Shown: positions 3,500 to 40,250, numbered from the stretch's first letter. The stretch is DNA of 64,000 bases from Blasia pusilla (GCA_050084515.1 CM114271.1:1364001-1428000); one strand, 5' to 3'. The notes: generated by a model not told the origin, from the letters alone. Translations and numbers: made by a program.

Positions 3500-3608
3500 G
3501 AAGATCCCCAAAAACTCTCCTCCTTTGTTTTGACGGATGAAGGCTCATGGGAGAAGATCCCAAAGAACTCTGCTCCTTTGTTTTGACGGATGAAGGCTCA
3601 TGGGAGAA
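3500..3608. repeat. Tandem duplication of a ~53-bp unit
   Basis: gaagatccc..aactct..ctcctttgttttgacggatgaaggctcatgggagaag occurs twice back to back. Confidence 0.85.
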
Positions 3609-5372: not shown

Positions 5373-5735
5373 TCAACCTCACTACTCGGTGAGAGAATGG
5401 TACCTATGAAGAGCAGGGTAAACACCAATGATCCTTGAAACCCGTATGCAACGCTGTTTGTCACGTCTAAGAGATGAAGCAGTTAGAGGAACTTACTCTG
5501 GTCTGGCCGCTTGCTGTGGTACGCAGGCTATCAGCAGAAGGGCTCCGGACCCGTAAAAATTCAGCGGGGAAATAAAACTTGCCACCATCTTCATACTCGA
5601 GTTCTAAGCCCTGCAGTATCACGGAACCAAAATCCAAATTCCACCAACACGAGGATCAGTTTTCACTGAATGGAGATTAACATTTCGTTACAGCAGGATT
5701 TAAGGCTTGTGAAGTGGACGGGGACCAGAAACTAC

Positions 5736-6051
5736 TGTACCCCAAAGAAGGGCGTGAAATAGGTCTTAATCCATGACTCACAGCGATAAGTTTCAGAAAG
5801 TCTCAAGTCTGACTGAAAATCGGGCAAATCTCTGAGAACTTTCTCGTCGTCTTTGGTGCCATCTGACAGATACTGACTAATTACGCAGCTTGAGACGTAG
5901 ATGCGCTATCTCCATCTCATAACGCTTGAGGATTCTCCAACTGAGCCAAGCCACAGCGATAAAAGATGGACTCTGAGACAGGTCATTCGTTTTATTGTAT
6001 CCCAAAGAAGGGCGTGAAATAGGTCTTGATCCATGACTCACAGCGATAAGT
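5736..6051. repeat. Dispersed direct repeat, ~56 bp (5736-5791 and 5996-6051)
   Basis: tgta(c/t)cccaaagaagggcgtgaaataggtctt(a/g)atccatgactcacagcgataagt present twice with 2 mismatches. Confidence 0.85.
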
Positions 6052-20529: not shown

Positions 20530-20807
20530 GCTTAACTTTGTAAACCCATTTGCTACCAATAGATTTCTTACAGGATGGTATATCTACCAAATCCCAAGTC
20601 TATTTATGTGTTAATGCAATAAGCTCTTCCTTCATAGCTTCACTCCATTCAACCTTATACGCAACTTCTTCAAAACAACTTGGTTCTTGTTCATGAAGAA
20701 CGGTCATCATATATGTATGATATGTTGCAATGAATCCTTCATTTATAAATCTATGACATATAACCTGTGACTCTACTTGATCTACAAAGTTATTGCTCAG
20801 AGGTGGA
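20530..20807 (-). mobile_element. Ty1/Copia relic, start of RT (left part of the interrupted element)
   Basis: Minus translation EPSCFEEVAYKVEWSEAMKEELIAL..*TWDLVDIP, the classic Copia pre-RT motif. Confidence 0.8.
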
Positions 20808-21301
20808 TGTCGTGCGAATCCACATCGTCATACAACATACATCGCTGACATACCATACTCACATACATACATAACATAGACGAGAGCATACACAAACACA
20901 AGTGTACAAGTAAAAGACCTACTGTCATAAAACACGATTAGAATCCCATAAAATGGAGCCAAACCCACTCCACAATGGGAGAATCCAGGTCGAAGCTTGC
21001 GGGAAGCACCATAGCCAAGAGCACTACTCACTACCAAGGCTAACTCCCAACGCAACAGGCTCAACTCAAAGAACTAATTGTTCTTTGAGTACACTCCACA
21101 CCATACACAAACATAAGTGTACCACAACTCGCCCCCCTAATTGACGGTTAGGTCCCTCTAACTCCCAGGTAGCCCTATACATCTACTACATGCTATACAC
21201 CTTCGTGGGTGCACGAATCAGAAGGCCGGGTGCTAGGTTGTCCCATCGTTAGTCGCACATCTGTAATCCACATCATGCAAAGATCAAGTCATCTACCCCT
21301 C

Positions 21302-23334
21302 CTAAGTACATTGAGGACAAACCCACCTTCTAGTAGGAACAACATCCATACGTGGAGTCAAACACATCATGTGCCTACCCCTAGAATACCAATCACACAC
21401 CAACATACGGGCTGCGTTACCAGCAGACCCACACAACATGCACCTCAAGCTAGCACGTATCATGGCTAAGCTTGGGTCAACAGTACCATCCACATTTGGG
21501 AGATGACATGGCTCAAAATTACGCACATGGTCCTTCCAAACAACTCCATCACGAACCTCCAACATGAGAACTCCAGAAGCTAACACCTCTCGCACTTGTA
21601 AAATAGTGTGGCCTATCGTCACATCCAACGTTGTTGGTGCAATCTGCTGCAAATAGACATAGTCCCCCACATGGAACCTACAAATCAATGGTCGATAACC
21701 TCCACCCCGAATGGTTGCATACTGCAACGTATCCCTGTGTTGAGCAATGGCAAGATTCTCAAAGGATGTTGGCATAACTCTCCGGAAGAGCTCTGCCCGT
21801 TGAGAACACACTCTCATCCGCATCTCTGGGTCATCAAGGTTCACCACCTCACTAGAATCCCGACAAATTGCTGCTGGCAAGTCTGGATCTTGGCCGTGTA
21901 ACAGAAAATAAGGTGAGAAGGAAGCCAAGGATGCTTGGCGACTGAACCTATACCCCATGGCTAACCATGGCAACTAAATATCCCAGTCTCCAAGATGCCC
22001 CTTCTGTAGGCCATACTTACGCAATGCCCTCTTCACCGTATGAACCACATGCTCAGCCAAACCATACGCCTCTAGATGATCTCGAGACGTGGTCCGATGA
22101 TCAATCAACGCCTTATCACACAAGACCTGAAACTCACCTTGAAACTCTGTACCGTGGTCGGTCAGCACCTCAGATGGTGCACCAAAATGCCTAAGCACAA
22201 GTCACACCGGTTACAAACCATACAACGTGATACCAACTGCTGCACCTGAGTATGCATGCCACGCCACCAATAATGGCCAAGGAGTAAGCTATATGTACGC
22301 TTTACCCCAATATGTCCCAACTCCTCATGGGCATGTCGCACAATGCGCTCTCTCTGAGCCAAATGCGGCACCACTCGTACTCTACCATCCTCCCACACAT
22401 GAAGAATATGTGTTCCCTCCAATCGATACCTCCTAGCATGTTGAAGAACATGGTCTTGCTCCTTGACACTCACTATGCCTGGCATCCTACTGGTCCGTAG
22501 GAACTCCAACACCAACGCATCATCATGATGATCCGTACCACCATCTCCAACCTTAGGATCTGAAGGCTGGCCATCTACCCTCTGACTAGAGTGAGATGTC
22601 ATGTGGTCCTCCATACTAGAATCCACCCCTAACCAACATAAAAAGGCAGATGCATGCCATCCTGGCACCATCTCCTCATCAACCTCGCCATGCCATCTAG
22701 CCCAAGTTGCATCCTCTTGTCTAGTACATGGGTTCCTACTCAACCCATCAACATCAAGGTTGGCCACTCCAGGTCTATGTATCACCTGGAAGTCATACTC
22801 CTGTAAGATAAGAGCCCACCATGCAAGCTTCCCTGTAAGCTTGGTAGACTCCATCAACCACTTAAGCGGCTGGTGATCAGTAACAAGGGTAAAGTGTGTG
22901 CCAAATAAGTAACACCTAAAGTGTGCCACAGCCCACACTACTGCCAAGCACTCTCCCTCATATGAACTATAGCGCGACTCCGTTGCATTATTCGGACGGC
23001 TTGGGTAGGTCACCACAAACTCCATGTGCTCATCATCATGTTGTGTCAACACCGCTCCAAGTTCCAACATACTCCAATCCGTGTGCAACTAAAATGGGCG
23101 CCCTCCGATAGATCTCCTCAAGATAGGCGCGACCACCAACTAGGCCTTGAGCTCCACAAAAGCTCTCTCCTGATCATCTCCCCAGTGCCACTCTTGATAT
23201 GATTTCAGCAATTGGTTCAAAGGCTTTGCCATAGCACTAAATCCCTTCACATACCTCCGATAGTAGTTCGCCAATCCCATGAATGCCCGAACTCTACTCA
23301 CATCTACCGGACAAGGAATAAGTGTAATAGCCAC
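21302..23334 (-). pseudogene. pol 3' part of outer Gypsy: RT thumb, RNase H, integrase, C-terminal PHD finger
   Basis: HTDWS.LELGAVLTQ, YSSYEGECLAVVWAVAHFRCYLFG, LVTDHQPLKWL; HEELGH..YWW..C..C; VLTDHGTEF; SPYFLLHG; CMLC...LVCDWY...HMMC...WVCPQC. Confidence 0.9.
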
Positions 23335-24888
23335 TAGAGAGAATTGAGAAAAGACCCCTTGGTACTAAGAAAGATATGAAGATATTGATAAGACATTGAA
23401 TATAACTCATACACATTTAAATACAACTATTACAACAGAATCGTAATTTCGAACTCTCTTTTCATCAAATAATGATCCTCTTGGGGATCGAACTTATTAA
23501 ACGAATGTAAAATAGAAACTCTTGTACATTACATATAAGTGATAAAACTTTTTGGCACCGCTTCCGGGGATCATAAGCTTTGCTGAGGAGGGAGAGAGAC
23601 ACATGGGGAATCCAGGAGCGGGGAAAGAAGCCTCGTCTCCTAGAAGACCCAACCAGCTAGTTCTTACTGAAGACCATCTGCTATCTCTAGCGATCCCCCT
23701 TAGACAATGGATGAAAGAAGATAACAACCGGTTGCTTTACTACTCCATCAAGAATGAGAAAGCTTCAAAGTATATACAAGCTCGAGAGGGTACTACAAGC
23801 TTCAAAGTGTATATTACTCGAGAGGGTAAAGCAATCATTCATTCATTCTAGTGGAATTGACAGCATGCTCAGGTAGATTTCCTCTCGATATCAAGAAACC
23901 TCACAAAGACCTCAACATGAAAGCTCGCTTCTCCTACTTTCGGAACTCAATCCGTCTCGGCAGGCTACTCTCTATCAAACAGATTTCCTACAATCTTTAT
24001 GTTGATTATTTCATTGATGAGAAAGATTCGCCTGATTCACTCTTCACTCTATAGACCCAAAAAGAATACTCAGACATAAGCATTGCACATCAGAATGAAT
24101 GAATGATTGCTTTACTACTCCATCAAGAATGAGAAAGCTTCAAAGTGTATACAAGCTCGAGAGGGTACTACTCCCGTGCTCGGACCATTCCTACAACATG
24201 AGGACTACGTAAGAGAATGATGATTATGGCTTCTGTCTTGCTTCTTAAATACTTGCTGGAGTAGGAGTGATCCAAAGATTCAAAGCGTTCTTGATGAAGT
24301 TGGTGTCTTTTCAGCATTTGTAACTATCTAGATCTATGGTTCTCTTAGCTTTTCCTACGATCCCTATGAATCCGCAGAACAAAACTATCCTAACTATCTA
24401 TCTGATACAAAGGGTTGCGCCCTTTCCTAGTCTAACTGTTCTAACGGTGTGTCGCTTGAAATCATTGTCATTCTTAGCTTCGCTTCCCTGGACTTCTTGA
24501 GGACAAAGCGCTCCATTCTCCATTCTTCGTTCTTGTTTAATGTGCTTCTTGCTTCGTGCTTCGTACGAGAGCAAAGTACTTCTTTCTCTTATTCTTTCTG
24601 CTTCGTTATGCTTTGTTATAGAGCGAAGCACTTCGTAGACAAGGCTTTGTTGAGCTTTGTTATCGTTCCGAAGCTTCTTACTGAGTCTTGAGACTTCGTT
24701 ATTTTATTCTCCTCTCCTCTTAGGAAAATCCTTGATTTTCTATCTCTCTGCCTTGTCCTTGGAGCTTCTCGATTCACTTTAATCTTACTAATTCCTCCTC
24801 ATAATAATAATCAAAATCATAATGTACAAGAGTCTTCGTTGAATAAAAAGATATATTTCTTCAAAAGTACAAAATTATGGGTATCACA
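23331..24888 (-). repeat. 3' LTR of inner Gypsy (outer ~400 bp inverted, plus filler)
   Basis: 23847-24888 is a direct copy of 33446-34480 (~96% by manual count). 23331-23733 is the reverse complement of ~33051-33453 (~4 mismatches). Confidence 0.92.
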
Positions 24889-25071
24889 TACCCTCTCCCT
24901 CAAATGTGAGCGGCCCCGGCGAACACATCAGGATGTTTCTTCTAACTCCATAAAAATATCGTCTAAACTATCAAACTCAAGTGTAGGCGCAAAATGACCG
25001 TGAATAGTAGAAGGTTTGTTGATAATGTTGGGGGTGTGATTGCGCATTCTTTCTTGCGATTTATTAACAAC

Positions 25072-26871
25072 TTATTTACTTCCTAATACTTTGTTCTTGA
25101 CTAAGACATCAGATGGAGTAAATAATGGTAATTCTTCAAAAGTGATCGAGAGGTTGGGAACAACTTCCGGTAGAGACTTCGTATGGTTGTCGAATTGGCG
25201 CTTCCAATGTTTGTTGATATAGTCGATCTCTTTGCTCATCTGTTGTTCAAAATTCTTGCTTGCTTTGTCGACTAACTCCTTGACATCTTGCGGGTCTAAT
25301 TGTACTTTGTTGAGAAACTTCTGTTTTGCCTCCAAGACAGCGATCCTCCCTGTAACCTCCGACCACTGCGCCAATAAATCTATGTGCGTTTCTTGATGTT
25401 CTTGAAGCAATTTTGAAGATTGAGCATGTTGTGTGGCCAATTTCTTGAATTTGTTGCTAACACTATGCATTTGGTGTCAATATTATTTAATCAGTTGTGA
25501 AGCTTCCTTGATATGCGAAGCTAACTGATCAGCCCCACATTCTAGGTTAATCGCTAAGCTCTCCCATTGGCATGCGTTCCGTGCTTCGTACTGACTGTGG
25601 ACCAAGTTGCTTTGAACTCTGTGAAGCGTGGTCTTCGTGTTTTCGAGTTCTTGATCCCGCAGGTTAAGATTTGCTTCCACCACTTTACGTTGTGCTTTGT
25701 TCTCTGACGAAGCTTGGGCCCTACAGTTGAGATCATCAAGGGCTTGTAAATACTCATCCACCGTCGCTATGTCTTCCAGGTGGAGAACACGTTGAAGTTG
25801 ATTCATGACCGAGACAACTAAATTCAGGAACCACACCATATCGTTGGCTGTCTGGGACATGAGACAAAGTGCAGGACGGTGATCGCTAGCACAAGGCATC
25901 TTGTCAGAGTCCTCATGAGTTGCAGGTTCTGGTTTTGAGGGTGTTTCGAAATTAACCTTGCCGCGCTTTGGTCTTGGAAATTCGATGAACTCCTTGGCTT
26001 TCCCTGAAGCCGAAGTATGCGGATGTTGCTTTGGGGCTGCTTTGCGTGGCGGGGTGACTTCGCGGCTCCCACTAGTGACCGCTCCGCTCTTTCTTGGCAA
26101 GCGGACGGGAGTGACCTGCGACCAATATAGCGCTTCGTCTTCCGTCAATTCCTGCTTATGAATATATAGATGGATTCAAAAAGGAGACAAGAATGACTTC
26201 GTGCTCGGATGAAGCGCCTCCAGCATTGCTCGTACGTGCCCGTCGACAAAGGAAGCGAAGTTGACTCCTGGTGCTTCGGGGTCCAGGTGCTGATTCCAAA
26301 GGATATAGCACATCTTGACGAGCTTATTTGTTAGGTAGTAAGATTGAGCAGGGTAAACTAACGTCATCAAATGCTTACAACACTGTCCAAACAATGGCGG
26401 AGACATCGAAGTAGCCTTATAACCATTCTTGCCAAGGCGATCAGACGTTACACAACCGAGTGCCAACAAATCTTCGTGTTTTACCATGGCCTTGGTATCA
26501 TACTCATACTCTGGAGCAGTCGGGAGCATAGAAGTGGCTCGCTAGTCATACGACGTCCATTGTTGTGGTTGAGCTCGATATCGAAGACCCTTCCTTCGAA
26601 ACTTGGTTGCTGCACTTGAGAAGCGAAGCTCCCCGAGGAGTTCCCCGGATGTCAAGGTCCAATTAGCTTGAAATAAAGTCGCCAAAGATCGCTCTTCAAG
26701 CGCTTCGACCAAGTCTGGTGACAGCTTGACCATAGGCATGGCCGCACTTCGCAAAATGGGCGTGGAGTCTTCACGAGGCATGCTGGTAGGTTGATCTCGG
26801 TGAACGCCCCGCTTTGGTCTCCTACGCAACTTTGTGGTGACTTCGTCCATGAAAATACCTATCTGGTTCAC
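25072..26871 (-). pseudogene. Extra ~600-codon ORF downstream of integrase (unknown function, coiled-coil C-terminal half)
   Basis: ORFs 26542-26871, 26176-26529, 25483-26148 and 25072-25470 are all in one reading frame, separated by single in-frame stops. Confidence 0.75.
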
Positions 26872-27247
26872 TAGGGACGCTCATATAGTCCCAGTGTTAT
26901 GCAGGCTCTTGGTGTTGGCGCCGGAACTGCAAGAGTCAGTTTGGCGCTTCGCTCCTTTGCGAAGCTCAAGAACTCTCGCGCTTTGCGCCTCTGCAAAGCT
27001 CCCATACATCACGCTTCACGCTTCGCAAAGTTCTAGTCTCCTCACGCTTTGCCCTTTTGCGAAGCTTGAGGCAGTCGCTCACCCCCTTCCCTCTTGTTTC
27101 ACTCCAAGTAGGGTTGAGGCTCATAATACCGCCGAACATGCATTCCATTGACACGAGTGGGCAGGGATTCGCCCTGTAAGGTCCCCAGGTGTAGTGATCC
27201 GTTATCATAGATGGCCAATACCCGGTAGGGTCCCATCCAGTTTAATT

Positions 27248-30200
27248 TTAATTTTCCGGGAACTTTAGCCGCCGGTTATCGTACAACAGCACCAGGTCTC
27301 CAACGCTTATAGATTGTGGCCACAGATGTCGATCGTAACGTTGCTTGCGTTTGTTTTGCACATGTTTTGTCTGGCGTAAAGCCAACGTGCGTTCTTCCTC
27401 CAATGCAACTAAGGTCTCATTCCTTCCTTGGAAAACTTCGCCGACTGCATCTGTTCTCGTTCCTTCCAACACTCGATAAGTGGGCAAAGCCCATTCAATA
27501 GGTGTTAAGGGATGAACGCCATAAGTCAAGAAGAACGGGGTATACTTTGTATGAACCTTCTCAGCTGTTTGGTATGCCCACAATGCCGCGGCGATTTTCA
27601 TGTCCCAATCATAGGAATGCGTTACCGTCAATCGATTCAATATCCGGCAGATCAAGCCGTTAGATTTTTTTGTCAACCCGTTGGCTTTAGGGTTGTAGGG
27701 CGTGGTTTTCCGATGCTTAATGAGAAACTGAGAAGTTAGAGACTCAATAGTCTTGTTCAAGAAGTGAGTGCCACGATCACTTACTAATTCCAATGGGCAG
27801 CCATACTGAGTGATAATCATTTCGTATAAAAATTTGGCCACTGCCCCACTATCATCTTTTCGCGTCGCCATCGCCTCGACCATCTTGGTACAATAGTCGG
27901 TGGCTATAAGGATATACTTCCGCCGTGTTTGGCGAGTAGCGGGGGAGATAGGACCCACAAAGTCAATACCCCATTTTTCAAAAGGAGCTAGGGGCATGGG
28001 TACCAAAGGCCACCGCGAGGTAGCCGTTGGTCGACCTGCTCTTTGACAAGCATCACAACTTTGGATAAAGTTACCTACATCTTTGTACATAGTTGGCCAC
28101 CAATGACGTGCGGCCAAGATTTTCTTAACGGTATTTTTTACAGCGTAGTGTCCACCAGAATCAGCCGCATGCATGGCTCTGATAAGGTGGGGGATTTCTT
28201 CTACTTCCAAGCATCGCTGATACTCTTCATCCGCACCTAATTTGAATAGTATCCCCTGACATATCTCATATGGTCCTATCTTATGCAAAAAGACTGCTCG
28301 TTCCTCCGCTGTCATAGGGGCGGGAAGTCACAGAGTAATTAAAAAACGCAAAATATCTTCATAAAAAGATTGGCACAACCGGTCCTCCATGATGTGGAAC
28401 AGGTCTTCATCGGGAAAGGTGTCATCCACGGATTGTGTGAGGTCCGCGTTCGTCATCCTCAACCGGGAAAGAAAATCCGCTTTGGTATGAACCTTGCCGG
28501 CACGGGTAACGACATCGAATGTGAATTCTTGGAGCAAGTGGATCCATCGCGCAATGCGACCTGACAGGTCCGCCTTTACCATTAATGGTCTAAGCGTGAA
28601 ATGATCTACATGGAAGAAAAATTCGTATCATAATAAATAGTGTCGGAACTTTTTACACGAGAAGACCATGCCTAGCGCCTCTCGTTCGGTAGTTGTATAT
28701 TTTTGCTCCGTTGAAGATAGTTGTCGGCATGCGTAGTAAATCGGGAAGTCATGTTTTTTTTCATCCAATTGACCGAGCACCACTCCAATGGCAAACAAGG
28801 ATGTGTCCACATATACGTGGAAGGGTTTGGTCCAATCGGGGGACCGAAGTACAGGAGGCTTTTATAATGCTCCCTTTAAGGCGTCAAATGCCGCTTGGCA
28901 AGGTGGGGTCCACTCCCATTCGGTAGTTTTTTTAAGTAATGCGGTAAGAGCTCCTGCTTTCACTACATAATCTCTAATAAACCGTCGATAATATCCGATG
29001 TGTCCCAAGAATCCTCTCAATTCTCGGAGATTGGTGGGTGGTTCCAATGCGATGATAATATCCACCTTGGCCTTGTCGACTTCAATTCCTTGAGCCGACA
29101 CTCTGTGCCCCAACAAAATCCCTTGTTTCATGGCAATATACGATTTTTCCGGATGGAGGGACAAATACACTTCGTGACAACGAGCAAGGGTTAATTATAA
29201 TTTTTCCAAGTGTTCAGCCTCTGTACTGAAGATACAAAAATTGTCCAGGAAAATTTCAACAAAATTCCGTAGATACTCTTGGAAGATGGAGATCATCATT
29301 TGTTGGAAGGTATTTGGCGCATTGCATAACCCAAAGGGCATCACACGATACGCGAAAGTTCCCATGTCCGTGGTGAAAGTTGTGAGGGGCCGATCTTTTT
29401 CTCATATGGATACCTGGTTATAACCCGAGTATCCATCCAAAAAGGTATAACGCTCGTGGTCGGAAACTTTGTCCAAAATACTCTGAGTGAAAGATAGGGG
29501 GTGATGGTCCTTTAAGGTGGCCGAATTCAATTTCTGATAATCCTGGCACACTCTGATTTTTCCCATTTTTTTTTGGGTACAATCACAATGGGAGACACCC
29601 ACTCGCTACTTAACACAAGATAAATTATTCCTGCCCCGAGACGCTGGTCGATTTCGTCCTTGACTGACAACGAGTACTTTGGGTTGAGGTGATACTGCCT
29701 CATCCGTACCGGGACCGCACCTTCTTTTAGGTCAATTCGGTGTTCACCATACTGTGCTGGAATGCCTGTCATTTCATCCATGGAATATGCAAACACATCC
29801 AAATACTCAAACAACAACCTTTTATACTTAATGAGTTCGGTTGGAGACAAATCCGCCGAGAGGCGTAGAGACTTCTGACATGTAATTAAGACGTGTACGT
29901 AGTCCTTTTCTTGAACCATATTTTCTGTGAACTGGAATGTGCTATTACCCAGCTTCTCTTCCTCTCGGGTTGACTTCTGTTTGCTAGGTACCGACTCCTC
30001 GTCTATTTTGTAACATTCTAAATAATACACATTGGACGAGGACTCAGTAGCTGTAGTCTGCTCTTGATCTGACGTATAGCCTTCATCGGTCGGTGGCGTT
30101 TCTCCTTGGGATGGTCGTGATTTCCACGACAGCGTGATGAGCCACTTTGAGACCTGGTCTGGAGCCCGGAACGTGAATTGTCTCCTTTCCCAGTCCGTAG

Positions 30201-32460
30201 TCACTCTCGCACCGTACAAGCAGGGTCTTCCAATAAGCAAAGGATAGCCAATGGCTGTTAGGGGTTGCAATACTAAATAGTCCAAAAAAAATAGCACCCC
30301 GTCGAGAATGGTGGGATCTGAGTGAGCTATCCAAGGGGTCGCTTCCGGGGCTGATCCGCGAACCGCAGATACTTGTCTGTGGGCCCGTACTCCGTGTATC
30401 CTAGTGCTCTGGCCGTCTGTTCCGTCATAATGTTAATTCCACTTCCTGAGTCAATGGGGACCTTCTTAATGGTGTATCCCTCAATCTCCACTTCTACCTC
30501 TGGTGCTCCCAAATCTTCCACTTCGATACGGAACATATCCACTACTGGTAGATTCTTTGCAGACTTCTTGGGTTTTCTACGGCTTATCTTCCACTGTTGC
30601 AAAATTTTGCCGTACACAAGGTTATCCATTAATAATTGCAACAGGGTTATATTGGCCGGGGTTGACGCCAAGTCCCTGAGTAAGTCGTAGGCTTCTAAGA
30701 CCAGAGGTGACGTCGCGATGGCTTGCAATGCCGGAGTCATTTCGGTTCTCGTCTTCTCTATGGTCTGCCTCCCTTCTGGCCCCTGGTCTTGACGCACTTG
30801 AGCCCGAACCTGATCCTCAATATCCTGATGGAAGTACTTAGGGTGACTTCGATCGAAGGCCGGGTCAACATCTCCTTTTAGGATGTCCTTCCCGGCGCAG
30901 AAGGCGTCGACACTTTTCGTCTTGGGGTCTTTAGCTTCGCGCGAAGACAAAGCACCTTTCCTTGCCTTGGGGGTCCTAGCGGTCAGATTCTGGGACCTCG
31001 TGGTGACAGCAAGAACGGTTACTTGGAGCTCCTTGGGCCAGTCCGATGATTCTTTGGCCGCCGTTCTGTCCGAGTCCTCCTCCCTGATAGTGACTCGCCT
31101 TGGCCTGGGGGACCCTAACTCTTCCACTCGGACGAGTTGCACATTTACGTCATTCTTGGACTCTGGTTGGGCTGTTGGGGTGTTGACATACTTTACCAAC
31201 AACCGCGGGACCTTGGGCTCCGGGCATTCCATTGTAGTGTGCCCGCCCTTCTTGCAATTTCCGCACAAGGGATTGAGTCCTACTGGCCGCTTTGGATTTG
31301 GGCAATTATTAGCCTAGTGGTCAGCTGCCCCGCAATTATAACAACAATTCCTTTTTATGGGTGGCGTGAAGGCTGCCACACCCATAATTTGTCTTAGGGG
31401 TCTCTGTTCCCCGTATTCTAGAGGCACATATTGGGTGATCCAACTTCGTCCGGGATTAGGTGGTGGCACAGCTTGGATTGCATAGCACCCTTCCCACTGT
31501 TCGGGTTCATACCACCCTTCTTCTGTAGTTGGATCTTCCTGGATCCAACGTAAATCCCTCTGAGTATGACATTCCTGAGCAGTATGCCCTTGGATTCCGC
31601 AGGTACTGCACCAGATGTTGGGCCTCATTAGACCTGGTCGTCTTCAGGGATCCTTCTGGGCCGCCAGATGTACCTTCAATTCCGCCATTTGTTGACTTAG
31701 CTCTTCAATGGCAGACTTGCCTGCCTTCCTTACTGTTCCCTTCACTGGACTTTCCGCCCACTGGGGAAGGTGCTTTGTTGGTCGGGTTTTCCTTCGGTGC
31801 TTGGGAGAGTGGTGGCGCATGCTTTTTCTTTTCCGCTTAGATTTTAAATCTTTTTCGGAGTCCGAGGACTCCGAAGTGTCCCCCATAGAGGATTCCGTGT
31901 CTGTGGAAGATGCTTCGTCCTCCGACGAAGCACTAGTTTGCGAAGAACCTCGTCTTCGTGTTTTACGGGACTTCTCTGAGGCCTGGTACACCTCTGCGGA
32001 GGCTATGATTGCTTCCACGAAATCTCGTTGGCCTCACCGGAAGTACTAGTCCATTTCTTTGGACAGTCCCGACACGAACCAATCTACCAACTGTGAGGTA
32101 GTAGTGTGTTCAAGTTTATTCATCAGGCTTCAAAACCTTTGGGTTTATTCCATGAGGGTTTCCTTCTTTTTATGTTTCAGGTCGCGAAGCTTTGTAAGAA
32201 GCCTGTCCTCGACCTCCAGGTCACGGAACTCATGAAGAAAGGCCTCTAGTACCCTTTTCCACGCTTCCGTGACGTCCGCTCCGAGACCCTCGTACCATTG
32301 GCTTGCTCACTTTTTAAGCAGACCAGGAAAGACTCACAACAAATACTCCTCTGAGCCTTCCCCATTAGCCTTGGCTACATGGGTAAATTCAAGCACAAAG
32401 TTGTCAACATCATCTCGCTGTCCCCTTGCAAACGTGGGGTATCTTAGCAGCGTCTTCCTA
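27248..32460 (-). pseudogene. gag-pol of inner Gypsy (frameshifted, stops)
   Basis: Ordered gag, CCHC, PR (30327-31268), RT (28862-29760), RH (28328-28810), INT (27248-28315), i.e. Gypsy domain order. Confidence 0.92.
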
Positions 32461-33043
32461 GTGTTGGCCATTGGGAATGGTCTGCTGCTAGGTCCCGGGC
32501 TTGATGCTCGGGAGGGAGGAGGCAGCGGTTCCGATCTAGTTGATTTGGTTGGCTCCTCGTCCCCCGAGTCCCCAAAGGGATTCCAGGTTGACTCTTCGTC
32601 CGACTGCAAATTGGCAGGAGACGTGGTGGGGAGCGTATTCTTGTCCCTCTTCTTGATCTTGGGCTTCCTGCAAAGACGAAGACTCGGAGACACCCCATGC
32701 GGTCTCCAAGACGGGTGATCTTCTTGTTGCTTACTACGTCGATCAGCTCGCTGATCTCGCAAAGAGGGCCGGGAGACTTCCATGAGTCCCTTCTGGGATT
32801 CGGGAGCTTACTTCCGCACCCACGATCGCCACAAGGTAGGGGTCCATGGAGGGAAATTAAATCTTCCTAATTCCTAAGCCTACAGGAGTGTGCAGGTGCT
32901 CTTAATCTTCCTGCCAGGTTTTCCTCCCATAAACAGAAGTATCGGGTCATCACCAAGTACAATTGACGTTCATGGGCAAAGCACCATTAGGCGATTGGTT
33001 TGCTGACAATACTAATTAATTGTTCTATCTTTTCTAGCACCAA

Positions 33044-34480
33044 TGCAGCAAACCGGTTGTTATCTTCTTTCATCCATTGTCTAAGGAGGATCGCTAGAGA
33101 TAGCAGATGGTCTTCAGTAAGAACTAGCTGGTTGGGTCTTCTAGGAGACGAGGCTTCTTTCCCCGCTCCTGGATTCCCCATGTGTCTCTCTCCCTCCTCA
33201 GCAAAGCTTATGATCCCCGCAAGCGGTGCCAAAAAGTTTTATCACTTATATGTAATGTACAAGAGTTTCTATTTTACATTCATTTAATAAGTTCGATCCC
33301 CAAGAGGATCATTGTTTGATGAAAAGAGAGTTCGAAATTACGATTCTGTTGTAATAGTTGTATTTAAATGTGTATGAGTTATATTCAATGTCTTATCAAT
33401 ATCTTCATATCTTTCTTAGTACCAAGGGGTCTTTTCTCAATTCTCTCTAGTGGAATTGACAGCATGCTCAGGTAGATTTCCTCTCGATATCAAGAAACCT
33501 CACAAAGACCTCAACATGAAAGCTGGATTCTCCTACTTTCGGAACTCAATCCGTCTCGGCAGGCTACTCTCTGTCAAACACATTTCCTACAATCTTTATG
33601 TTGATTATTTCATTGATGAGAAAGGTTCGCCTGATTCACTCTTCACTCTGTAGACCCAAAAAGAATACTCAGACATAAGCATCGCACATCAGAATGAATG
33701 AATGATTGCTTTACTACTCCATCAAGAATGAGAAAGCTTCAAAGTGTATACAAGCTCGAGAGGGTACTACTCCCTTGCTCGGACCATTCCTACAGCATGA
33801 GGACTTCGTAAGAGAATGATGATTATGGCTTCTGTCTTGCTTCTTAAATACTTGTTGGAGTAGGAGTGATCCAAAGATTCAAAGCGTTCTTGATGAAGTT
33901 GGTGTCTTTTCAACATTTGTAACTAGCTAGATCTATGGTTCTCTTAGCTTTTCCTACGATCCCTGTAAATCCGCAGAACAAAATTGTCCCAACTATCTAT
34001 TTGATATAAAGGGTCGCGCCCTTTCCTAGTCTAACTATTCTAACGTTGTGTCGCTTGAAATCACTGTCATTCTTAGCTTCGCTTCGCTGGACTTCTTGAG
34101 GACGAAACGCTCCATTCTTCATTCTTGTTTTATGTGCTTCTTGCTTCGTGCTTCGTACAAGAGCAAAGTACTTCTTTCTCTTCTTCTTCCTGCTTCGTTA
34201 TGCTTTGTTATAGAGCGAAGCACTTCGTAGACAAGGCTTTGTTGAGCTTTGTTATCGTTCCGAAGCTTCTTGCTGAGTCTTGAGACTTCGTTATTTTATT
34301 CTTCTCTCCTCTTAGGAAAATCCTTGATTTTCCATCTCTCTGCCTTGTCCTTGGAGCTTCTCGATTCACTTTAATCTTACTAATTCCTCCTCATAATAAT
34401 AATCAAAATCATAATGTACAAGAGTCTTCGTTGAATAAAAAGATATATTTCTTCAAAAGTACAAAATTGTGGGTATCACA
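33044..34480 (-). repeat. 5' LTR of inner Gypsy (~1.44 kb)
   Basis: Minus strand begins TGTGATACCCA. Probable end ...TGCTGCA followed by T-TGGTGC (PBS-like). The inner boundary is approximate because the partner LTR is rearranged. Confidence 0.85.
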
Positions 34481-37210
34481 TATAACAGCCTCACACCAAG
34501 CCTCATGTCGTAGTGCACCTCCTGAACTCCAAAGTGGCACATCCAACAATGAGGATACCACTGCTGCAAAACTATGGACCTCCTCTATCTCCTGATGCAT
34601 AGGAGAATCCATAGCAGAAAAGTTACCCTCCAAAAAGTCTCCTGGCCAAGTGACTACTCCACTAAAACCAGCCACAAATGCTAACACTGTAGGGGAAGAC
34701 CCTCTTGGTCGAGCCCCATAAATAAATCTCATAGGAACATGGCTCATATGTCCATCTCCGGACTGCCAACTAGGTCTATAAGACGCTCTCTCAATCTAGT
34801 AGTCCATCTGAAAACCCATCGGGTAGAATACTGCTCCTCCAACTAGTACATCATACGACTCGGCTGATGTGACCACTGCAAGTACTCCCAACCTGGAGCT
34901 ATCAATTGCATGATCTGGTCTTAACTGTACAGACAACTTCTCTCGTATCATGAAATGAGACCCATCATTGGCTCCTCCAAGTGATGTCTGAATCTGGAAT
35001 GGGCAAGGCTCAAGCTCTAACCTCCGAAAACCCAAACCAATACATGTTGCCTTTCCCAACATCAAAGGTTGGGCACCAGAGTCTAACAAGACTCTATCTG
35101 GTCTATACACCTGTCCTGTAGGACTCACCAATCGGAATATCCCACTCCGGTTGTCCAACATACAAACACCACGTGTAAGCCTCCCACGATCAATGGCTGG
35201 CCGGGCTGGTAATGCATCCATCTTCGCCACTGCTGCCTGCCAAGTAGCACTGGCACATGACATAGACGGTTGCTCCACCGCAACACCCTCATCCACCTCA
35301 GCAAGTGTAGCAATAACACTCTCATGTTCACACAACGTGGCTGCTAGCTGAAATACATGAGCTAAGTCAATTCCTAAGGCCATCAACTCACTGGCCGAAA
35401 ACAATGGGGATCCCAATACTGAAGTTGCCATCCTCAATAGTGCACTAGATGCTGCATCCATGTCTACTACACGCGATGTAGATGCCTCAGCCCCCACTGT
35501 AGGCTCAATAGGCTGCGTAGGAACCATGGATGGAGTCCTAAGTACCTCAGACAACAAGAATGAATGGGGGAGCCTAGCGTGCCTCCCAACCTCACCCCTA
35601 TGTGGGTCCAACTCCACAGTAGCACCATGTGGCTGTGATGCTAGAGTGGCTCCTCTCGTAACTGCAGCTGATGCCTCAACCTGTGCTACACTCGCCATAT
35701 AAGAGAGATCATCCCCTCCATAAGAGGTGGAAGCCCCTGCTCCCGAACCTGCTCTATGCTGGATACCAGCCATAGTAGCCAACCTCTACTCCACTTGCTA
35801 AATCCTCGCAGCCATAGCCGACTCTGTCGTAGTGGTAGGGGCAACAACCATAGGCTCTCCAACCGCTGGTCCACCTCTACCACCCCTACCACCTTTACCA
35901 CCTCGGCCTCTTGGAGCTACTCCACCACGGCCGCGGCTTGATCTCAACTATAGATGAAGATCAAAGCAACACTCTCGAGGATGTCCTGGTCTCCCACAAT
36001 AATCACAATGAGTTGGGGCTGACTGAGGTCCATCCTCCAAAGTCCGTCTCCCATTCTCTTGGGGACAAAACCTCATAACATGATCACCTCCACATGTCCA
36101 ACATGATTTTCCTTGCTGCGGGGCAGAAAATGAAGGCAATGGTCTCTGCCCAAGCGTCCCTCTAGGACCTAACTGAGGTCGTGTGGACCCGACACAACTC
36201 CCACTACTACTACCACCACCACTACTACGAGATTGTGAGGTGGACTGTTGAACACGAGAAGTAGTAGTTGTATCCCTACTGAATGCGGATGTCACCACCC
36301 TCTCCTCCACCATGTTAAGTTAAATCTTCTTAGATAGAGCAAACACATGGGCCAATGTGGATGAATCATCACTCATAAGAGTAGCATCACGTACCCTACG
36401 GCGCAACTCTCTGTCCAAGATCCCATACCAAAATTGGACTGCCTGAGCCTTAGTCATACCCTGGGTAACTGAAATCAAGCGTCGCATACGAGTGTATGCC
36501 TCACAAAGACTCTCACCAGTCTTTCGCTCAAATTCTTGAAGACTCCTCAACTTCTCTGTCTTCACTCCCTGATAGTTCTTCTTCAACCTCTTGAAGAACT
36601 CTGCAACTGGGCTGAACGATGGTGGGGCACTAGTACCTCCACTAGTATCCCCACTGGTACCTCCACTTGTACCCCCACTCCAGCTTGTACTCGCACCACT
36701 CAACGTCGGGCTGGCTTACATAGTAAGAGCACTACTACCAATACCACCATGGGTGATGGACACATAGCTTGGAGATCAATTTTGCCTCCATGCCTCAATC
36801 TCAACAGCATGGTACCTCCTAAACTCACGGTAATCAACCATGGGTGGTCCCTCCAAGTGCTGAAACAACCCCTTCCAAGCCAAGAAGGGTGTAAACAACG
36901 TGGCGTTCCGCAACATCTGCATATCACACCACATATCAAACTCCTAAATGAATTCCTCAAACTTAATGGTGCCCACTGCACCCGAGTATCATCGTGGGCC
37001 CTTCATGGCCCCATATATCCCTTCCATGTCCCAAATCAATGGAGGTGCAACACTCAATAACAACGTAGAAGACTCGGTGTTTGGAACACCCTCGTCCTCC
37101 TCTTCATCAACCGTCGGAAGTAGAAAAGGTAGTTGATACCTCAATCCACTCCGTGTAAAACCACCACTGTCCGCACCACGGTCCCCAACTAGACCACCAG
37201 ACAGCTCCAT
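34481..37210 (-). pseudogene. gag and protease of outer Gypsy
   Basis: Gag core YQGVKTEKLRSLQEFERK; knuckles CWTCGGDHVMRFC and CDYCGRPGHPRECC; protease VLLDSGAQPLMLG...YDVLVG. Confidence 0.85.
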
Positions 37211-37972
37211 GATGACAAACGCCGATGCCGCACCACCACTAAGTAACCAAGTGACGTCGATGTCGTTGTACTATTCTAGCTCTACTAGCTATGGGTGTGG
37301 GTAACCTAACCTGCCATCACCACAAGAAGCCTCCCGCGATCTACTGGTCATCACTCCAACCTCACTACCGGTAGCACACATGAGTAAAACTACTACGGAA
37401 ATCAGCGTCAACCCTAACAATGGGCGTGCATGCAAGAAGCAACGATGGAGGGGATCCAAACACAGGAAGTCCAGCGACGACCCTCTAATCGCAAATGGAA
37501 ATCAAGGTAACAAAATCTACCAAAGGTGGCGCCCCCTAACTCCATAGAACCAACCACAAAATTCTAACGAAATAGTTGCTCCACCGGTGGTCGATGACGT
37601 GCTAGTCGCACTCTCAACACCTGAAAATGTCACCCGCATGGAGAGGCCACACTGTACTATGCGCTAGAGGTCCATAAACCAAAAACCCGAGATGCATAAA
37701 ACGCCTAACACATCTCCTAATAATACCAAATGAGCTACACTAATGTGTACACTGGCGTAGTTAAGAACTCAACAGTTAAGCGTCTTCCAGGCAGAAGAGC
37801 CCAAAGATGGATGACCAGTTATGCAACACTCAACTCACAAATCCGGAAAAAATTGCCTCACGCCCAAGCAAGCAAGCTTGCTTGCTTGCTCCTTGCTCCT
37901 TACTCCGCCTCTCATGCCCACTCGCCACGAGCTACCACGAGTTGCCTCAAAGCCTCGAAACGCCAAGAAATG

Positions 37973-38303
37973 CCCCGTTCGCCACGCTTCGCTATGGAGA
38001 GAGGCCCAACCAGGGCGCCCCCACCAGGATAGGTGTCTGCAACAATGGACGAGTCACCAACCAACCAACCCTCTGATCTGCTGTCCACCATAGCCAGACC
38101 TTGAGCTAGTCCGCAAAATTTTGACCAGCGATTACTCCAATAATCCTCAACCAAAATTGAATCTCTTTCGACCCCGTTCGCCATGCTTTGCTATGCTTCG
38201 CTATGGAGAGAGGCCCAACCAGGGCGCCCCCAGCGGGATAGGCGTCTCCAAAAACGGACGAGTCACCAACCAACCAACCCCTCCGATCTGCTCTCCACCA
38301 TAG
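37973..38303. repeat. ~120-bp direct repeat pair in the leader of the outer Gypsy
   Basis: cgctatggagagaggcccaaccagggcgccccca...ggacgagtcaccaaccaaccaaccc...ccaccatagc at 37973-38093 and 38172-38303. Confidence 0.85.
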
Positions 38304-39224
38304 CTATTTATTCAACCAGAATTCAATTGGCCACCATAGCTACCTCTCCACAAAAAATCAGCTATAACCGAGCTTTGTACTCCAAGCTAAAAATCAGACA
38401 AACTTGCTGTCCATACACCTCCAGAATCGCAAATCCGACAACGCTTCCGCCCAGATTCATGCACACAGAAATCTACAACACTCTTTTATCATAGTAGCAA
38501 TCCGCTCCACACACTCAAGCAGATAGCTTCACATGAGATCACAATAGAGGTGGCAATAGGAACCTCCAACCTACAGAGCTTCCGCACTCCAAGCTCTCCA
38601 CATCAGAAAACCGTCGAACACGAACCAGAATCTTCAATCTTTGATAACTTCCAACTTCCTTGATGAAATCTAGCAATCTAAAGTGCGTTGGAAAGCTCTT
38701 AGCAAGGAACTTCTTTCCCAACCAACCACGCACCAGATCCACAACTCCAATATAGGCCACAAGCCACGAATATCCACGACTGAGTACACAATCAACCCTA
38801 AGTAGATCCTATTGATCTACGATCGAAGCTACCATCGATCTACTCCAGTTCTTTGAGTGAAGTCCGTGAAAGATCTACTATCATAAAACACGTATAGAAT
38901 CACATACAATCAAGCCAAACCCACCCCACGATGGGAGAATTCAGGTCGAAGCTTGCGGGAACCACCATAGCCAAGAGCTCTTCTCACTACCAAGGCTAAC
39001 TCCCAACGCAACAGGCTCAACTCAAAGAACTAACTATTTTTTAGTACCTTCCACACTATATCCTCCAACCTAAGGGAGGGCCCTACTGGAAAAGTCACCC
39101 TCAACGGAGTAACCCCCAACCCTATGTATGAAACCGCATCCCTATCTATACACTACGGCCCTACATAAGGTATGGCCTCTACTAGCACACTATACTTTAC
39201 AACATAATCCGTATAGTCATGACA

Positions 39225-40250
39225 TGGATGCCTCTGACATCTGACTTGAGCTCTAACTAGTGTTAATATACAAAATACGTACTCTTCTAGACAATGGATT
39301 GAAAGATTTAATAGAAGAAGCTAGGATCTCTCTTCAAGGGTTATCATCATATATGCATGATTTGTTGTAAGGAATCCTTAATATATGAATCTATGAATAG
39401 GATGTGTGACCCTACTTGATCTATACAATCATTGTTTAGAGGGAGATGTCTCCAACATCTAACTTAAGCTCTCACTAATATCAACACACTCAATTCACAC
39501 TCTTCTTGTCCATGGATTTATAGAATTAACTAAAGAGCTTGGGACCTCTCCTAACCCTACACTAGTTCTCCAAGAATTTTTAAGTAATATTTGTTTATTT
39601 ATGGTCATATTTCCTCCTTAAATAGACAAGTTTAGAGGTGGGATAGGCTTAGATAGAAGATACCATGACTTCAATTCACCAAAAATAACATTATAACTAA
39701 TAATAAGCTGCGTAGAGGATGGAATGTAGCAATTGTATCCTTGAATTCCATCAACGTAGCCAATGAAGATGTATCTCTCTAATTTGGGATCAAATTTTTG
39801 ACGTCTTTCAAAAGGAATATGAGCATAACAAATACAACCAAAGACATTGAAGAATGAAAAATCAGGTTTACTTCTTGGGAAAACTTCAAATGTATTCTTA
39901 TCATTAACTCTTGATGTTGGAGTTTTCTTGATTAAGAAGACTACGCAACTTTTGCCCAATACACCTTAGGCATGTGCTTCTCATTCAACATGACACATAT
40001 TGCCTTAACAACATGTCCATTTTTTCACTAAGTCACTCTAATTTTTTGTGGTGTGTAATGGCAATTGACTTGTTGTTGGATGCCATTTTGACGTAAGTAG
40101 TCATTAAAATTTGTTGAAAGGTACTCTCCTCCTCCATCACAATGTAATTTGAGAAAGTATTGTCTAGTCTGCTTTTCTACCATAAGTCTTAATGTCTAAA
40201 ACATTGAGAATACTTCTGACTTGGCTTCAAGAAAATATACGCATTTATAC
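39225..40250 (-). mobile_element. Ty1/Copia relic, integrase region (right part of the interrupted element)
   Basis: ORF 39618-39959 VFGCICYAHIP...KFDPK...IFIGY...GYNCY; upstream DGGGEYLS motif. 39225-39330 plus 20700-20807 align to a diverged duplicate at ~39340-39550. Confidence 0.85.

Follow-up and report, generated by a model that had tools for sequence, protein, structure and literature searches.

A decayed Ty3/Gypsy element from a streptophyte lineage with split, circularly permuted terminal repeats

The block at 20808-39224 of the window (the whole 64,000-nucleotide stretch of DNA analysed here) is a single insertion. The inserted element belongs to a streptophyte Ty3/Gypsy lineage and is an old copy, no longer intact; its odd ends are partly the result of decay and partly genuine family structure. 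In the integrated form of this lineage the long terminal repeat (LTR) is split and circularly permuted, although the integrase is of the ordinary DDE type. The family plan reads: 4-bp target site duplication (TSD), A1, a putatively self-priming primer binding site (PBS), gag/protease/(DNA methyltransferase, DNMT), reverse transcriptase (RT)/RNase H/integrase-PHD, polypurine tract (PPT), C1, NN, A2, (0-4 nt), C2, 4-bp TSD. A and C are each repeated, which gives a split direct repeat pattern as in DIRS/Ngaro elements. We regard this family structure, together with the account of decay in the window copy, as very nearly certain. Integration through a palindromic site inside the LTR is the best reading of how the arrangement arises, with a probability of roughly 0.6.

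The + strand termini of the insertion are TGTCGTG...CATGACA, with TGGA on each side; the outer element is oriented on the minus strand, from 39224 to 20808. Its flanks are continuous, since both align in succession with a neighbouring ~230-bp duplicate that serves as the empty site (20674-20811 with 39315-39450 on the left, 39228-39332 with 39446-39550 on the right). The host sequence of the insertion includes a flanking ORF at 39618-39965(-) with an SH3_retrovirus match (8.7e-25), which we take to be a Copia-type integrase tail. An earlier note on this DNA had described a single insertion whose ends share only a ~190-bp core and which has no recognisable tRNA PBS, and these observations were confirmed. 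Self-BLAST found one homologous segment between the ends (20910-21105 versus 38866-39060, 88.8% over 196 nt), which permissive scoring extended to 21117-20910 versus 39074-38866 (87% over 210 nt); the other seven of the eight permissive rows were 11-41 nt long with E >= 0.88, i.e. at chance level. No tRNA gene or Rfam match was detected in the window or at the element ends. The reading of the 18.4-kb block as one element has to be corrected, however, as it contains a nested element. In the orientation of the outer element, the features are:

39225..39228, no strand: TSD TGGA, right + strand copy, 5' flank of the element (flank reading and empty-site alignment)
38858..39224, minus: A1, the complete 5' split repeat, with head (the earlier note's "unique A") and core, starting TGTCATG and ending TTCA (full-length alignment)
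39020..39031, minus: 12-nt stretch within A1, complementary to the PBS-like site; putative transcript 5' end (complementarity)
38848..38859, minus: putative self-priming PBS-like site ACTCAAAGAACT, spanning the A1 end into the leader (complementarity and A1 alignment)
34499..37117, minus: ORF1 remnant (gag, protease region), stopping before the DNMT domain found in relatives (tblastn)
23331..34482, minus: nested, rearranged younger Gypsy, outside the described family (self-comparison, Pfam)
21305..23346, minus: pol remnant with the C-terminal half of RT, RNase H, integrase (H2C2 and DDE core) and a C-terminal PHD finger (Pfam, tblastn)
21128..21138, minus: PPT AGGGGGGCGAG, at the same position in three subfamilies (alignment)
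21101..21127, minus: C1 remnant, first ~27 nt, followed by a 233-bp deletion (alignment gap, columns 214-446)
20910..21100, minus: A2 remnant, core only, its head and the C1/A2 palindrome deleted (core homology, alignment)
20808..20909, minus: C2, the 3' terminal split repeat (the earlier note's "unique C"), ending in CGCACGACA (alignment)
20804..20807, no strand: TSD TGGA, left + strand copy, 3' flank of the element (flank reading and empty-site alignment)

Relatives were found at 80 loci on metagenome contigs, and contigs of public runs were aligned to the window. These copies are old (6-20% divergence between repeats). Elements of the family start with TGTCATG... and end with ...CATGACA. 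These two sequences also meet inside the element, separated by 2 nt at the C1/A2 junction, and make a palindrome ..GACA NN TGTC.., with a spacer of exactly 2 nt in all 30 loci carrying the junction. The 3' side could be scored at 55 of the 80 loci, corresponding to 47 distinct sites: 23 showed INT-C-A-C, i.e. the A1-B1-A2-B2 arrangement, 21 showed INT-C only, and three were of other kinds. Seven complete elements from two subfamilies (s1 and s2) were detailed; their identities are 80-92% for A1/A2 and 87-94% for C1/C2, and the A and C of the two subfamilies are not alignable with each other. The earlier note had taken A and C for parts that a normal cycle cannot copy, which is wrong, since relatives repeat the whole of A (~290-340 bp) as A2, and C as the internal C1. 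It was right that the two ends do not duplicate a single LTR. Decay alone does not account for this, which is a trait of the family: C stands beside A1 in none of the 17 related loci with a 5' side (about 15 distinct). Intact copies with A-core-C at both ends, which the note had named as the contrary case, were looked for among the relatives and not found. The 4-bp TSD also recurs in other copies. Among 14 distinct two-ended sites it is exact in eight, matches at three of four positions in three, is absent in two, and is exact in one further site if a mutated first base is permitted; the TGGA of the window is one more beyond this tally.

The coding capacity of the family is that of Ty3/Gypsy. 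The intact relative L016 encodes gag-PR-DNMT and RT-RH-INT-PHD, with protease in ORF1 and RVT_1, RT_RNaseH, Integrase_H2C2 and rve in ORF2. The pol order PR-RT-RH-INT with an H2C2 and DDE integrase, the PBS and PPT at opposite repeat borders, the TG..CA ends and the short TSD all agree with this superfamily; two complete co-linear terminal LTRs are not present, the ends being A1 and C2. In this lineage a PHD finger forms the C-terminus of the integrase, and the intact members encode a cytosine methyltransferase as well (PF00145: 1.8e-13 in L016 ORF1; a weak match of 0.0019, below the cut-off, in L055). Tyrosine recombinase (PF00589) is absent from L016 and from the Pfam lists of 146 relatives, and rve is present.

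The window copy can be followed along this plan. Its A1 aligns along the whole length with A1 of L002, L055 and L013, with BLAST matches as well, and its C2 is 84% identical to C of L002. Nucleotide identity to relatives is 75% and reaches down to 34499. The ORF1 remnant, which includes a weak Retrotrans_gag match at 36320-36715, corresponds to amino acids 37-833 of L016 ORF1 (24% identity, E 1.6e-46, tblastn); homology stops at amino acid 833, and the methyltransferase region is missing. The nested Gypsy proper occupies 23841-34482, has 1050-bp LTRs that are 95.7% identical, and is accompanied by an inverted 403-bp copy of its leader at 23331-23733. About 2.2 kb of coding sequence, comprising the DNMT and the N-terminal half of RT, was lost at this insertion. 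The pol remnant, supported by Pfam and by tblastn with nine relatives, retains the domain order RH, H2C2, rve, PHD and has its stop codon at 21302-21304. At the 3' end, a 233-bp loss seen directly in the alignment removed the rest of C1, the palindrome at the C1/A2 junction and the A2 head. What is left of C1 and the beginning of C2 form a direct repeat of 21 nt, and ~16 nt are absent at the A2 3' junction with C2. Because of these later deletions, only the ~200-bp core appears common to the two ends; sharing of the core only is true of this copy, but it stems from the 233-bp deletion and is not a family feature. Contigs of four public runs, from the same or a close species, join the PPT side straight to C and skip the core (at least 13 such contigs in X1 and X4). 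Loose ends in the public runs bear the A head at 21099/21106, and a go-back joint from 21129 to 20913 (depth 10.6) reads as an A end joined to a C start.

The priming sites lie at opposite borders of the repeats. In most copies the PPT consists of 6-9 consecutive G. It immediately precedes C1 in six of the seven complete s1 and s2 elements and also in L016; for the seventh (L070) the sequence examined began inside C1. The PBS complement differs in sequence among subfamilies, while its position (the last A1 bases into the leader) and its pairing are kept. It measures 17 nt in s1 (L002 and L013) and 15 nt in s2 (L031, L048 and L069), and its partner lies at about A position 162-185 (163 in most), ~25 nt past TATAAA. 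A decayed TATA-like motif near 39056-39063 is found just upstream of the 12-nt complementary stretch in the window A1. The complement has frequently decayed: exact matches of at least 10 nt occur in seven of 15 loci and in the window; the other eight loci have 8 nt or none. Folds closed by the PBS stem gave z-scores of -3.2 and -3.9 in windows whose limits had been set at the paired stretches. Complementarity of 12-17 nt, with different sequences in the two subfamilies, resembles Tf1-type pairing with the putative transcript 5' end and suggests Tf1-like self-priming from a transcript that would start near A position ~163. Such a self-priming site would explain the missing tRNA PBS. With a PPT directly ahead of C1 and a PBS directly after A1, reverse transcription looks canonical and should yield C-NN-A LTRs, and the end-to-end transcript or alternative priming proposed earlier is unnecessary.

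The copies of each repeat have remained alike, as under concerted evolution. No diagnostic column separates C1 from C2 (0/114 in s1, 0/188 in s2) or A1 from A2 in s2 (0/369), and the two found for A1 versus A2 in s1 (2/355) are both at alignment edges. Repeats within an element are slightly more similar than across elements (0.939 versus 0.927 and 0.905 versus 0.885).

Integration through the palindromic site may be pictured as follows. Transcription would start about 25 nt past the TATA box within A, the RNA 5' end would fold back onto the PBS as in Tf1 self-priming, and priming at the PBS and PPT would produce a cDNA with C-NN-A as its LTR. The integrase would then ignore the cDNA tips and cut each strand of the ..GACA NN TGTC.. 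site within the LTR at CA; this cut would directly yield two 3'-processed ends, to be inserted with a 4-bp stagger. Joined cDNA tips (a 2-LTR circle or equivalent) would give the A-int-C-A-C product, and a 1-LTR circle, linear cDNA or recombination between C1 and C2 would give A-int-C. The latter form makes up about half of the copies, a class in which primary product and deletion are indistinguishable. The A2/C2 junction varies partly by ordinary point mutation and is therefore no proof of de novo end joining. A random cut of a 2-LTR circle predicts that A-C-A-int-C should be as frequent as A-int-C-A-C; the former was seen in 0 of the 17 5' sides, an asymmetry for which the internal-site model does not account.

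That asymmetry bears on a DIRS/Ngaro-like alternative, by which the split repeats would serve, in the way suggested for tyrosine-recombinase elements, to regenerate the complete element from an RNA shorter than itself through template-directed circle formation, with the DDE integrase performing only the last step. Under replication of this kind the extra A-C copy would have a set orientation; it is indeed always 3', a bias that random cutting of a circle does not predict. PAT, Ngaro and VIPER elements use a tyrosine recombinase and are not known to make a TSD or to encode a protease or a DDE integrase, whereas all three, the TSD being of 4 bp, are present in the window family. The order A1 - coding - B1-A2-B2 is shared with these DIRS-order elements, PAT and Ngaro being defined by the A1-B1-A2-B2 repeat order in the available text of the source (PMC4157794). 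However, C-NN-A is bordered exactly by a canonical PPT and PBS, which LTR-type priming needs and the DIRS scheme does not; with the tyrosine recombinase absent from L016 and the 146 relatives, and TSDs present, we consider this alternative unlikely.

Mobility at the DNA level, Ginger- or IS3-like, would have the integrase move the whole of A1...C2 as DNA, with the repeats merely inherited. Ginger likewise has TGTNR ends and a 4-bp TSD, and a PHD finger occurs in some Ginger1 transposases (PMC2836005); yet no fixed difference tells A1 from A2 or C1 from C2 by position, despite subfamilies diverged beyond alignment, the inverted repeats at the ends measure only ~7 nt, and RT, RNase H, PPT and PBS are all conserved. 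This route, also raised in the earlier note, is accordingly disfavoured and very improbable. Post-insertion decay of a canonical A-core-C element, in which the 5' LTR lost C and the 3' LTR lost A, could draw on the 233-bp deletion at the 3' end and the 2.2-kb internal loss. It is contradicted by the relatives, where C never follows A1 (0/17) and C1 precedes A2 in 30 loci, and by the window A1 itself, which continues unbroken into the conserved PBS, and we give it hardly any credence. The rearranged interior might also suggest an assembly artefact, or a chimera that recombination made from two different elements. Continuous flanks and an intact TSD contradict this; single relatives match both halves end to end, and the same plan occurs in many independent contigs and public runs, so that such an origin can practically be dismissed.

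The family has partial parallels elsewhere. The Tf1/sushi-Tcn1 group of self-priming Gypsy elements has normal paired LTRs and a chromodomain, in place of which the window family shows split LTRs and a PHD finger; it resembles that group in the lack of a tRNA PBS and in a putative RNA 5' end that is complementary to a site at the repeat end. Tcn1 is reportedly the plant chromovirus clade for which self-priming has been predicted. The prediction is given in the available part of the REXdb paper (PMC6317226). Unlike LTR-LTR and IS3 circle junctions, which are formed from cDNA tips, the abutted ends of the window family lie inside the LTR and are recopied each cycle, and their spacer is 2 nt versus 4 nt in circle junctions. 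IS3-family circle junctions are a parallel for a DDE enzyme working on abutted ends. The same likeness holds for the palindromic LTR-LTR circle junctions cleaved by the integrases of foamy virus and HIV-1 in vitro, as described in the available text (PMC1180852, PMC1905944). Ginger1/2 elements share a Gypsy-like integrase (PMC2836005), but have 40-270-bp terminal inverted repeats and no RT; in our family the inversion at the ends extends over only ~7 nt, and RT and RNase H are present.

Closest is KnitGypsy-Dnmt3 of Klebsormidium nitens (de Mendoza et al. 2018, PMC5890265), for which the legend of Fig. 4c states a DIRS-like repeat structure with Gypsy domains, and which has the same Gypsy domain set and a DNMT within the polyprotein. 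The K. nitens protein P0074 (RT, DNMT, integrase) is 47% identical to L016 pol over 88% of the query; repeat structure and kinship both place the family with the streptophyte Gypsy-DNMT3 elements. The window element differs in coming from a liverwort or other bryophyte and in having lost its DNMT part. TSD, palindrome, PPT/PBS and mechanism are not given in the available parts of the K. nitens account. That figure legend was the only earlier record of the pattern in the literature searched, Repbase and Dfam lying outside the search. Split-repeat Gypsy elements with a DDE integrase are a barely described kind, of which the window element is a further member.

LTR finders presuppose two co-linear LTRs and will overlook, or draw the wrong boundaries for, a lineage whose repeats are split or absent; about half of the family copies are without any terminal repeat, which affects repeat annotation of bryophyte and charophyte genomes. 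Split direct repeats had been tied to tyrosine recombinases and are otherwise typical of those elements. Their occurrence alongside a DDE integrase, 4-bp TSD, PPT and putatively self-priming PBS decouples repeat architecture from the recombinase. Whether abutted ends at a palindromic junction are a natural substrate of a retroviral-type integrase is testable in the tractable plant Marchantia. Possibly, though we hold this only tentatively, the streptophyte DDE-integrase lineage as a whole (Klebsormidium, Closterium, liverworts) integrates via an att-like palindrome inside the LTR and not via the cDNA tips, through a joined or circular intermediate, the provirus being a circular permutation of the reverse transcription product. 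If true, the lineage would form a living link that connects LTR retrotransposons with the split-repeat elements of the DIRS/Ngaro type and with the way in which IS3/Ginger-type DDE enzymes transpose through circle junctions.

Self-comparison of the Gypsy-type insertion at 20808-39224 (minus strand; the window element) revealed a single homologous segment between its two ends, 20910-21105 versus 38866-39060, with 88.8% identity over 196 nt. In a permissive local search of the ends, this homology widened to 21117-20910 versus 39074-38866 (87% over 210 nt) and no second end-to-end homology was found, the other seven of eight matches being 11-41 nt long with E >= 0.88. On the plus strand the element runs from TGTCGTG to CATGACA, and TGGA flanks it on both sides. 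The flanks are continuous in a neighbouring ~230-bp host duplicate (20674-20811 versus 39315-39450; 39228-39332 versus 39446-39550). The earlier note had thus described the ends correctly (one shared segment, TGT termini, TGGA on both sides, continuous flanks), and its claim that both stem from one insertion event is borne out by the TGGA pair and by flanks that continue one another. The empty site can be reconstructed because the host sequence holds this duplication, which is tandem-like, with ~80% identity (20674-20811 plus 39225-39343 versus 39315-39550). The surrounding host sequence is Copia-like; its ORF at 39618-39965 (minus strand) matches SH3_retrovirus (8.7e-25), a domain of Copia-type integrases.

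Related loci (80 in total, with labels of the form L002) were taken from metagenome contigs scanned with an INT-PHD alignment. Two subfamilies were compared: s1 shows 75-88% DNA identity to the window element and s2 ~49% protein identity, and the repeats A and C of s1 are not alignable with those of s2. The complete elements from s1 and s2 (L002, L055; L031, L035, L048, L057, L070) carry a single repeat, A1 (280-340 bp), at the 5′ end and C1 (113-180 bp), A2, and C2 at the 3′ end. Identity within these elements was 80-92% for A1/A2 and 87-94% for C1/C2. The 3′ side was scorable in 55 of the 80 loci, as the other 25 ended too early or belonged to other subfamilies; L015, L022, L040, L042, L052, and L066, from such other subfamilies, gave no match to the A and C queries and lie outside the count. 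Distinguished by their 3′ flank, 47 distinct sites comprised 23 with INT-C-A-C, 21 with INT-C followed by unrelated sequence for at least 450 bp, and three others. On the 5′ side, A stood alone in 17 loci (about 15 distinct). The arrangement that the earlier note had named as speaking against its reading, A-core-C at both ends, was absent among the scored relatives: C adjoined A1, on either side, in none of the 17 loci with a 5′ side, and no co-linear C-A pair was found at both ends. The A-int-C copies (21 of the 47 distinct sites, e.g. L001, L010, L017, L029, L030, L036, L039, L043, and L050) are without any terminal repeat, and exact 4-bp TSDs occur in such copies where both ends are present (L001, L050, L065, L075).

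Element ends in both subfamilies read TGTCATG... and ...C(A/G)(T/C)GACA. The 4-bp TSD, noted earlier in the window copy, recurs exactly at 8 of 14 distinct both-end sites (AAGG, CATA, ATGT, ATAA, TACA, CCAA, GTAT, AACT); of the remainder, one becomes exact once a mutation of the first base is accepted, three match at 3/4 positions, and two do not match. At the internal C1/A2 junction both element ends lie 2 nt apart, forming the palindrome ..GACA NN TGTC.., with a spacer of exactly 2 nt in 30/30 loci and varying letters (GC, AC, AT, AA, GT, TC). The A2/C2 junction in s1 holds 1 nt (A or G) in 8/10 loci, and 20-nt and 46-nt inserts in the other two. As proof of de novo end joining, this variability was judged suggestive and not decisive, because same-site copies in different assemblies also differ there. 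Such copies, at one insertion site in several assemblies and with small differences including junction letters, were L004, L020, and L026 (same 3′ flank) as well as L041 and L046; they may represent alleles or closely related hosts.

Set against this plan, the extreme ends of the window copy are explained by deletion. Alignment with L002, L024, and L020 placed one 233-column gap in its 3′ end, which takes C1 from about the 28th base, the palindrome, and the A2 head to just past the TATA box; further gaps of 16 columns at A2/C2 and 8 columns in C2 were present. The window A1 aligns over its full length with A1 of the relatives, down to the PBS. Of the segments set out in the earlier note, 'unique A' is the head of A with its 3′ partner deleted; 'unique C' corresponds to C2, and of its partner C1 just 27 nt remain; and 'short B starting TGTGG' is that 27-nt C1 stump. 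Two other origins of the core, the repeat part common to both element ends, were rejected: (i) a tRNA-derived sequence, as it looked tRNA/SINE-like by eye, whereas ARAGORN predicted 0 genes, no Rfam family reached its gathering score, and a search of the two element ends at E <= 10 gave one chance sRNA match and nothing else; and (ii) an insertion with a long TSD, prompted by a 21-nt direct repeat around the 3′ core, which in the alignment is the C1 start kept beside the C2 start.

Contigs of four public sequencing runs (X1, X2, X4, X7) were aligned at >=80% to 20608-23330, i.e. the 3′ part only. In X1 and X4, no fewer than 13 contigs have joints from 20877-20899 to 21102-21115 that bypass the core. 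Loose ends at 21099/21106 resemble the A head of window 39055-39085, and one go-back joint from 21129 to 20913 (depth 10.6) reads as the A end joined to the C start. These contigs show the undeleted plan, either in the same genome or in ones closely related to it. Thousands of contigs with 80-99% likeness were found on this interval in X1, X2, X7, and X4, the commonest changes being transitions (C>T, G>A, A>G, T>C), and many diverged family copies appear to be present in these runs. Summed contig depth, which is not a copy number, was in the thousands inside the element and about 50-2,600 in flank bins.

A G-rich polypurine tract (PPT) lies directly 5′ of C1 in s1 and s2, in 6/7 complete elements (the stretch of the seventh, L070, began inside C1) and also in L016. 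At the other border, A1/A2 homology stops at ..TTTTCA (s1) or ..TTCAAT (s2), and the last bases of A1 into the leader form a PBS-like site. Its complementary stretch in A lies around position 162-185 (for most loci 163), and the TATAAA box precedes that stretch by ~25 nt. Exact complementarity extends over 17 nt in s1 (L002, L013), over 15 nt (L031, L048, L069), 13 nt (L050), and 10 nt (L035) in s2, and over 12 nt in the window copy; eight other loci have 8 nt or nothing. The pairing is kept between s1 and s2 despite different letters, and RNA folds of the inferred R-U5-PBS, in hand-chosen windows, close with the PBS stem (z -3.2 and -3.9). The site looks like self-priming of the Tf1 type, which would explain the missing tRNA PBS. 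The absence of a tRNA PBS reported earlier stands. Priming looks canonical (self-primed), and the alternative priming suggested in the earlier note is not needed. The chromovirus clade for which the REXdb survey predicts self-priming is presumably Tcn1.

C-NN-A is bordered on its outer sides by PPT and PBS, and reverse transcription would therefore be expected to yield a cDNA that carries C-NN-A as its LTRs. Relative to this cDNA, the integrated copy would then be circularly permuted, with the opening at the palindrome within one of the LTRs. If both strands of ..GACA NN TGTC.. were cut behind CA, two recessed 3′ ends would result, each with a 5′ overhang of 2 nt. Recessed 3′ ends of this kind are the state of processed retroviral ends. 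For the A-int-C-A-C form, the A end and the C start at the two tips of the cDNA would have to be joined, in the manner of a 2-LTR circle. Three sources could yield A-int-C: a 1-LTR circle, a linear cDNA cut at both of its sites, or C1xC2 recombination at a later time. Palindromic LTR-LTR junctions have been recorded as being cleaved by integrase, for foamy virus and for HIV-1 in vitro (PMC1180852, PMC1905944).

The earlier note had also considered integrase-driven mobility at the DNA level, as in Ginger transposons, which are described as having TGTNR termini, TSDs of 4 bp, and in some cases a PHD finger, together with long inverted repeats and no RT (PMC2836005). TGT ends, the 4-bp TSD, and PHD are shared with the window family, whereas the long inverted repeats and the lack of RT are Ginger's only. 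Diagnostic columns were almost absent between C1 and C2 (0/114 in s1, 0/188 in s2) and between A1 and A2 (0/369 in s2; 2/355 in s1, both edge effects), and repeats of one element were slightly more alike than repeats between elements, by a small excess only. The repeats thus seem to be renewed in each cycle and not inherited, which makes Ginger-like movement unlikely.

One observation does not fit the opening of a circle: were a 2-LTR circle cut at random, A-C-A-int-C should be as frequent as A-int-C-A-C, yet the former was seen in 0/17 5′ sides. The model lacks a directional step, and a DIRS-like, template-directed route is therefore the rival with most weight, if still a rather improbable one. 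The A1-B1-A2-B2 pattern defines PAT/Ngaro/VIPER elements, users of a tyrosine recombinase (PMC4157794); the window family has the same split-repeat pattern, but no tyrosine recombinase was found in L016 or in the Pfam lists of the relatives. The earlier interpretation is partly supported: the family is indeed non-canonical at integration, but the extreme look of this copy is due to deletion. TOC1, with its unusual LTR arrangement, is a parallel.

The coding content of the window (outer) element is interrupted by a nested, younger Gypsy:

36320-36715, minus strand: weak gag match, outer element
22162-23088, minus strand: RNase H and H2C2 zinc finger, outer element
21977-22201, minus strand: integrase core, trace, outer element
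21302-21973, minus strand: PHD finger, outer element
23331-34482: foreign stretch, holding the younger Gypsy and an inverted leader copy
23841-34482: younger Gypsy, 1050-bp LTRs (95.7% identical), own gag, RT, RH, and INT

The inverted copy (403 bp, 99%) of the younger Gypsy's leader lies just outside that element (23331-23733 versus 33051-33453), as does a 65-bp LTR piece at 23732-23796, and no matching TSD was present at the flanks of 23841-34482. When nine related polyproteins were aligned to the window, the outer pol began only at 23346-23331, corresponding to residue ~290-336 of ~1040-1170; in comparison with intact L016, the outer ORF1 homologue ended at 34724 (residue 833 of 1369). Therefore ~2.2 kb, comprising DNMT and the N-terminal half of RT, is missing at the nest (size taken from L055 coordinates 7303-9527), and this coincidence indicates a rearrangement, not a clean insertion. 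The outer 5′ leader also carries a direct repeat of ~118 bp (89.8%; 37978-38094 and 38187-38304, 209 bp apart). Upstream of the outer element, 16077-16649 (minus strand) shows 24% identity to L016 ORF1 residues 79-298 (E 2.6e-11) and is probably a gag remnant of another related element.

L016 is apparently an intact element at 1-9317. Its ORF1 (1369 aa) contains gag, aspartyl protease, and DNA_methylase (1.8e-13), its ORF2 (1047 aa) RVT_1, RNase H, H2C2, rve, and PHD; PPT-C-GT-A follows downstream, and both contig ends lie in GC-rich repeat sequence. Among named proteins, those of Marchantia polymorpha come closest to the INT-PHD part (79-81% identity), and the wider lineage takes in Riccia, Calypogeia, Closterium, and Klebsormidium nitens, with PF00145 (DNA methylase) beside RT and integrase in many members. 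A K. nitens RT-DNMT-INT protein shares 47% identity with L016 pol. For KnitGypsy-Dnmt3 of Klebsormidium, the Fig. 4c legend states that repeats are arranged as in DIRS and domains are those of Gypsy (PMC5890265). Judged by its sequence, the window element belongs to this lineage as a liverwort representative. The phrase 'streptophytes (Gypsy-DNMT3)' appears in a 2026 preprint, in passages that do not describe the structure. The REXdb survey gives TSD lengths of 4 or 5 bp depending on the lineage and predicts self-priming in a chromovirus clade, and neither 'PHD' nor 'Marchantia' occurs in its text (PMC6317226). No description of the palindrome, TSD, PPT/PBS placement, or repeat-free form of this lineage was found in the literature searched, supplements, Repbase, and Dfam aside.

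Elements of the kind to which the window family belongs have barely been characterised; the mechanism proposed here is testable. Its A-int-C copies are undetectable by LTR-finding programs, and the insertion sites repeated across assemblies offer a means of dating insertions.
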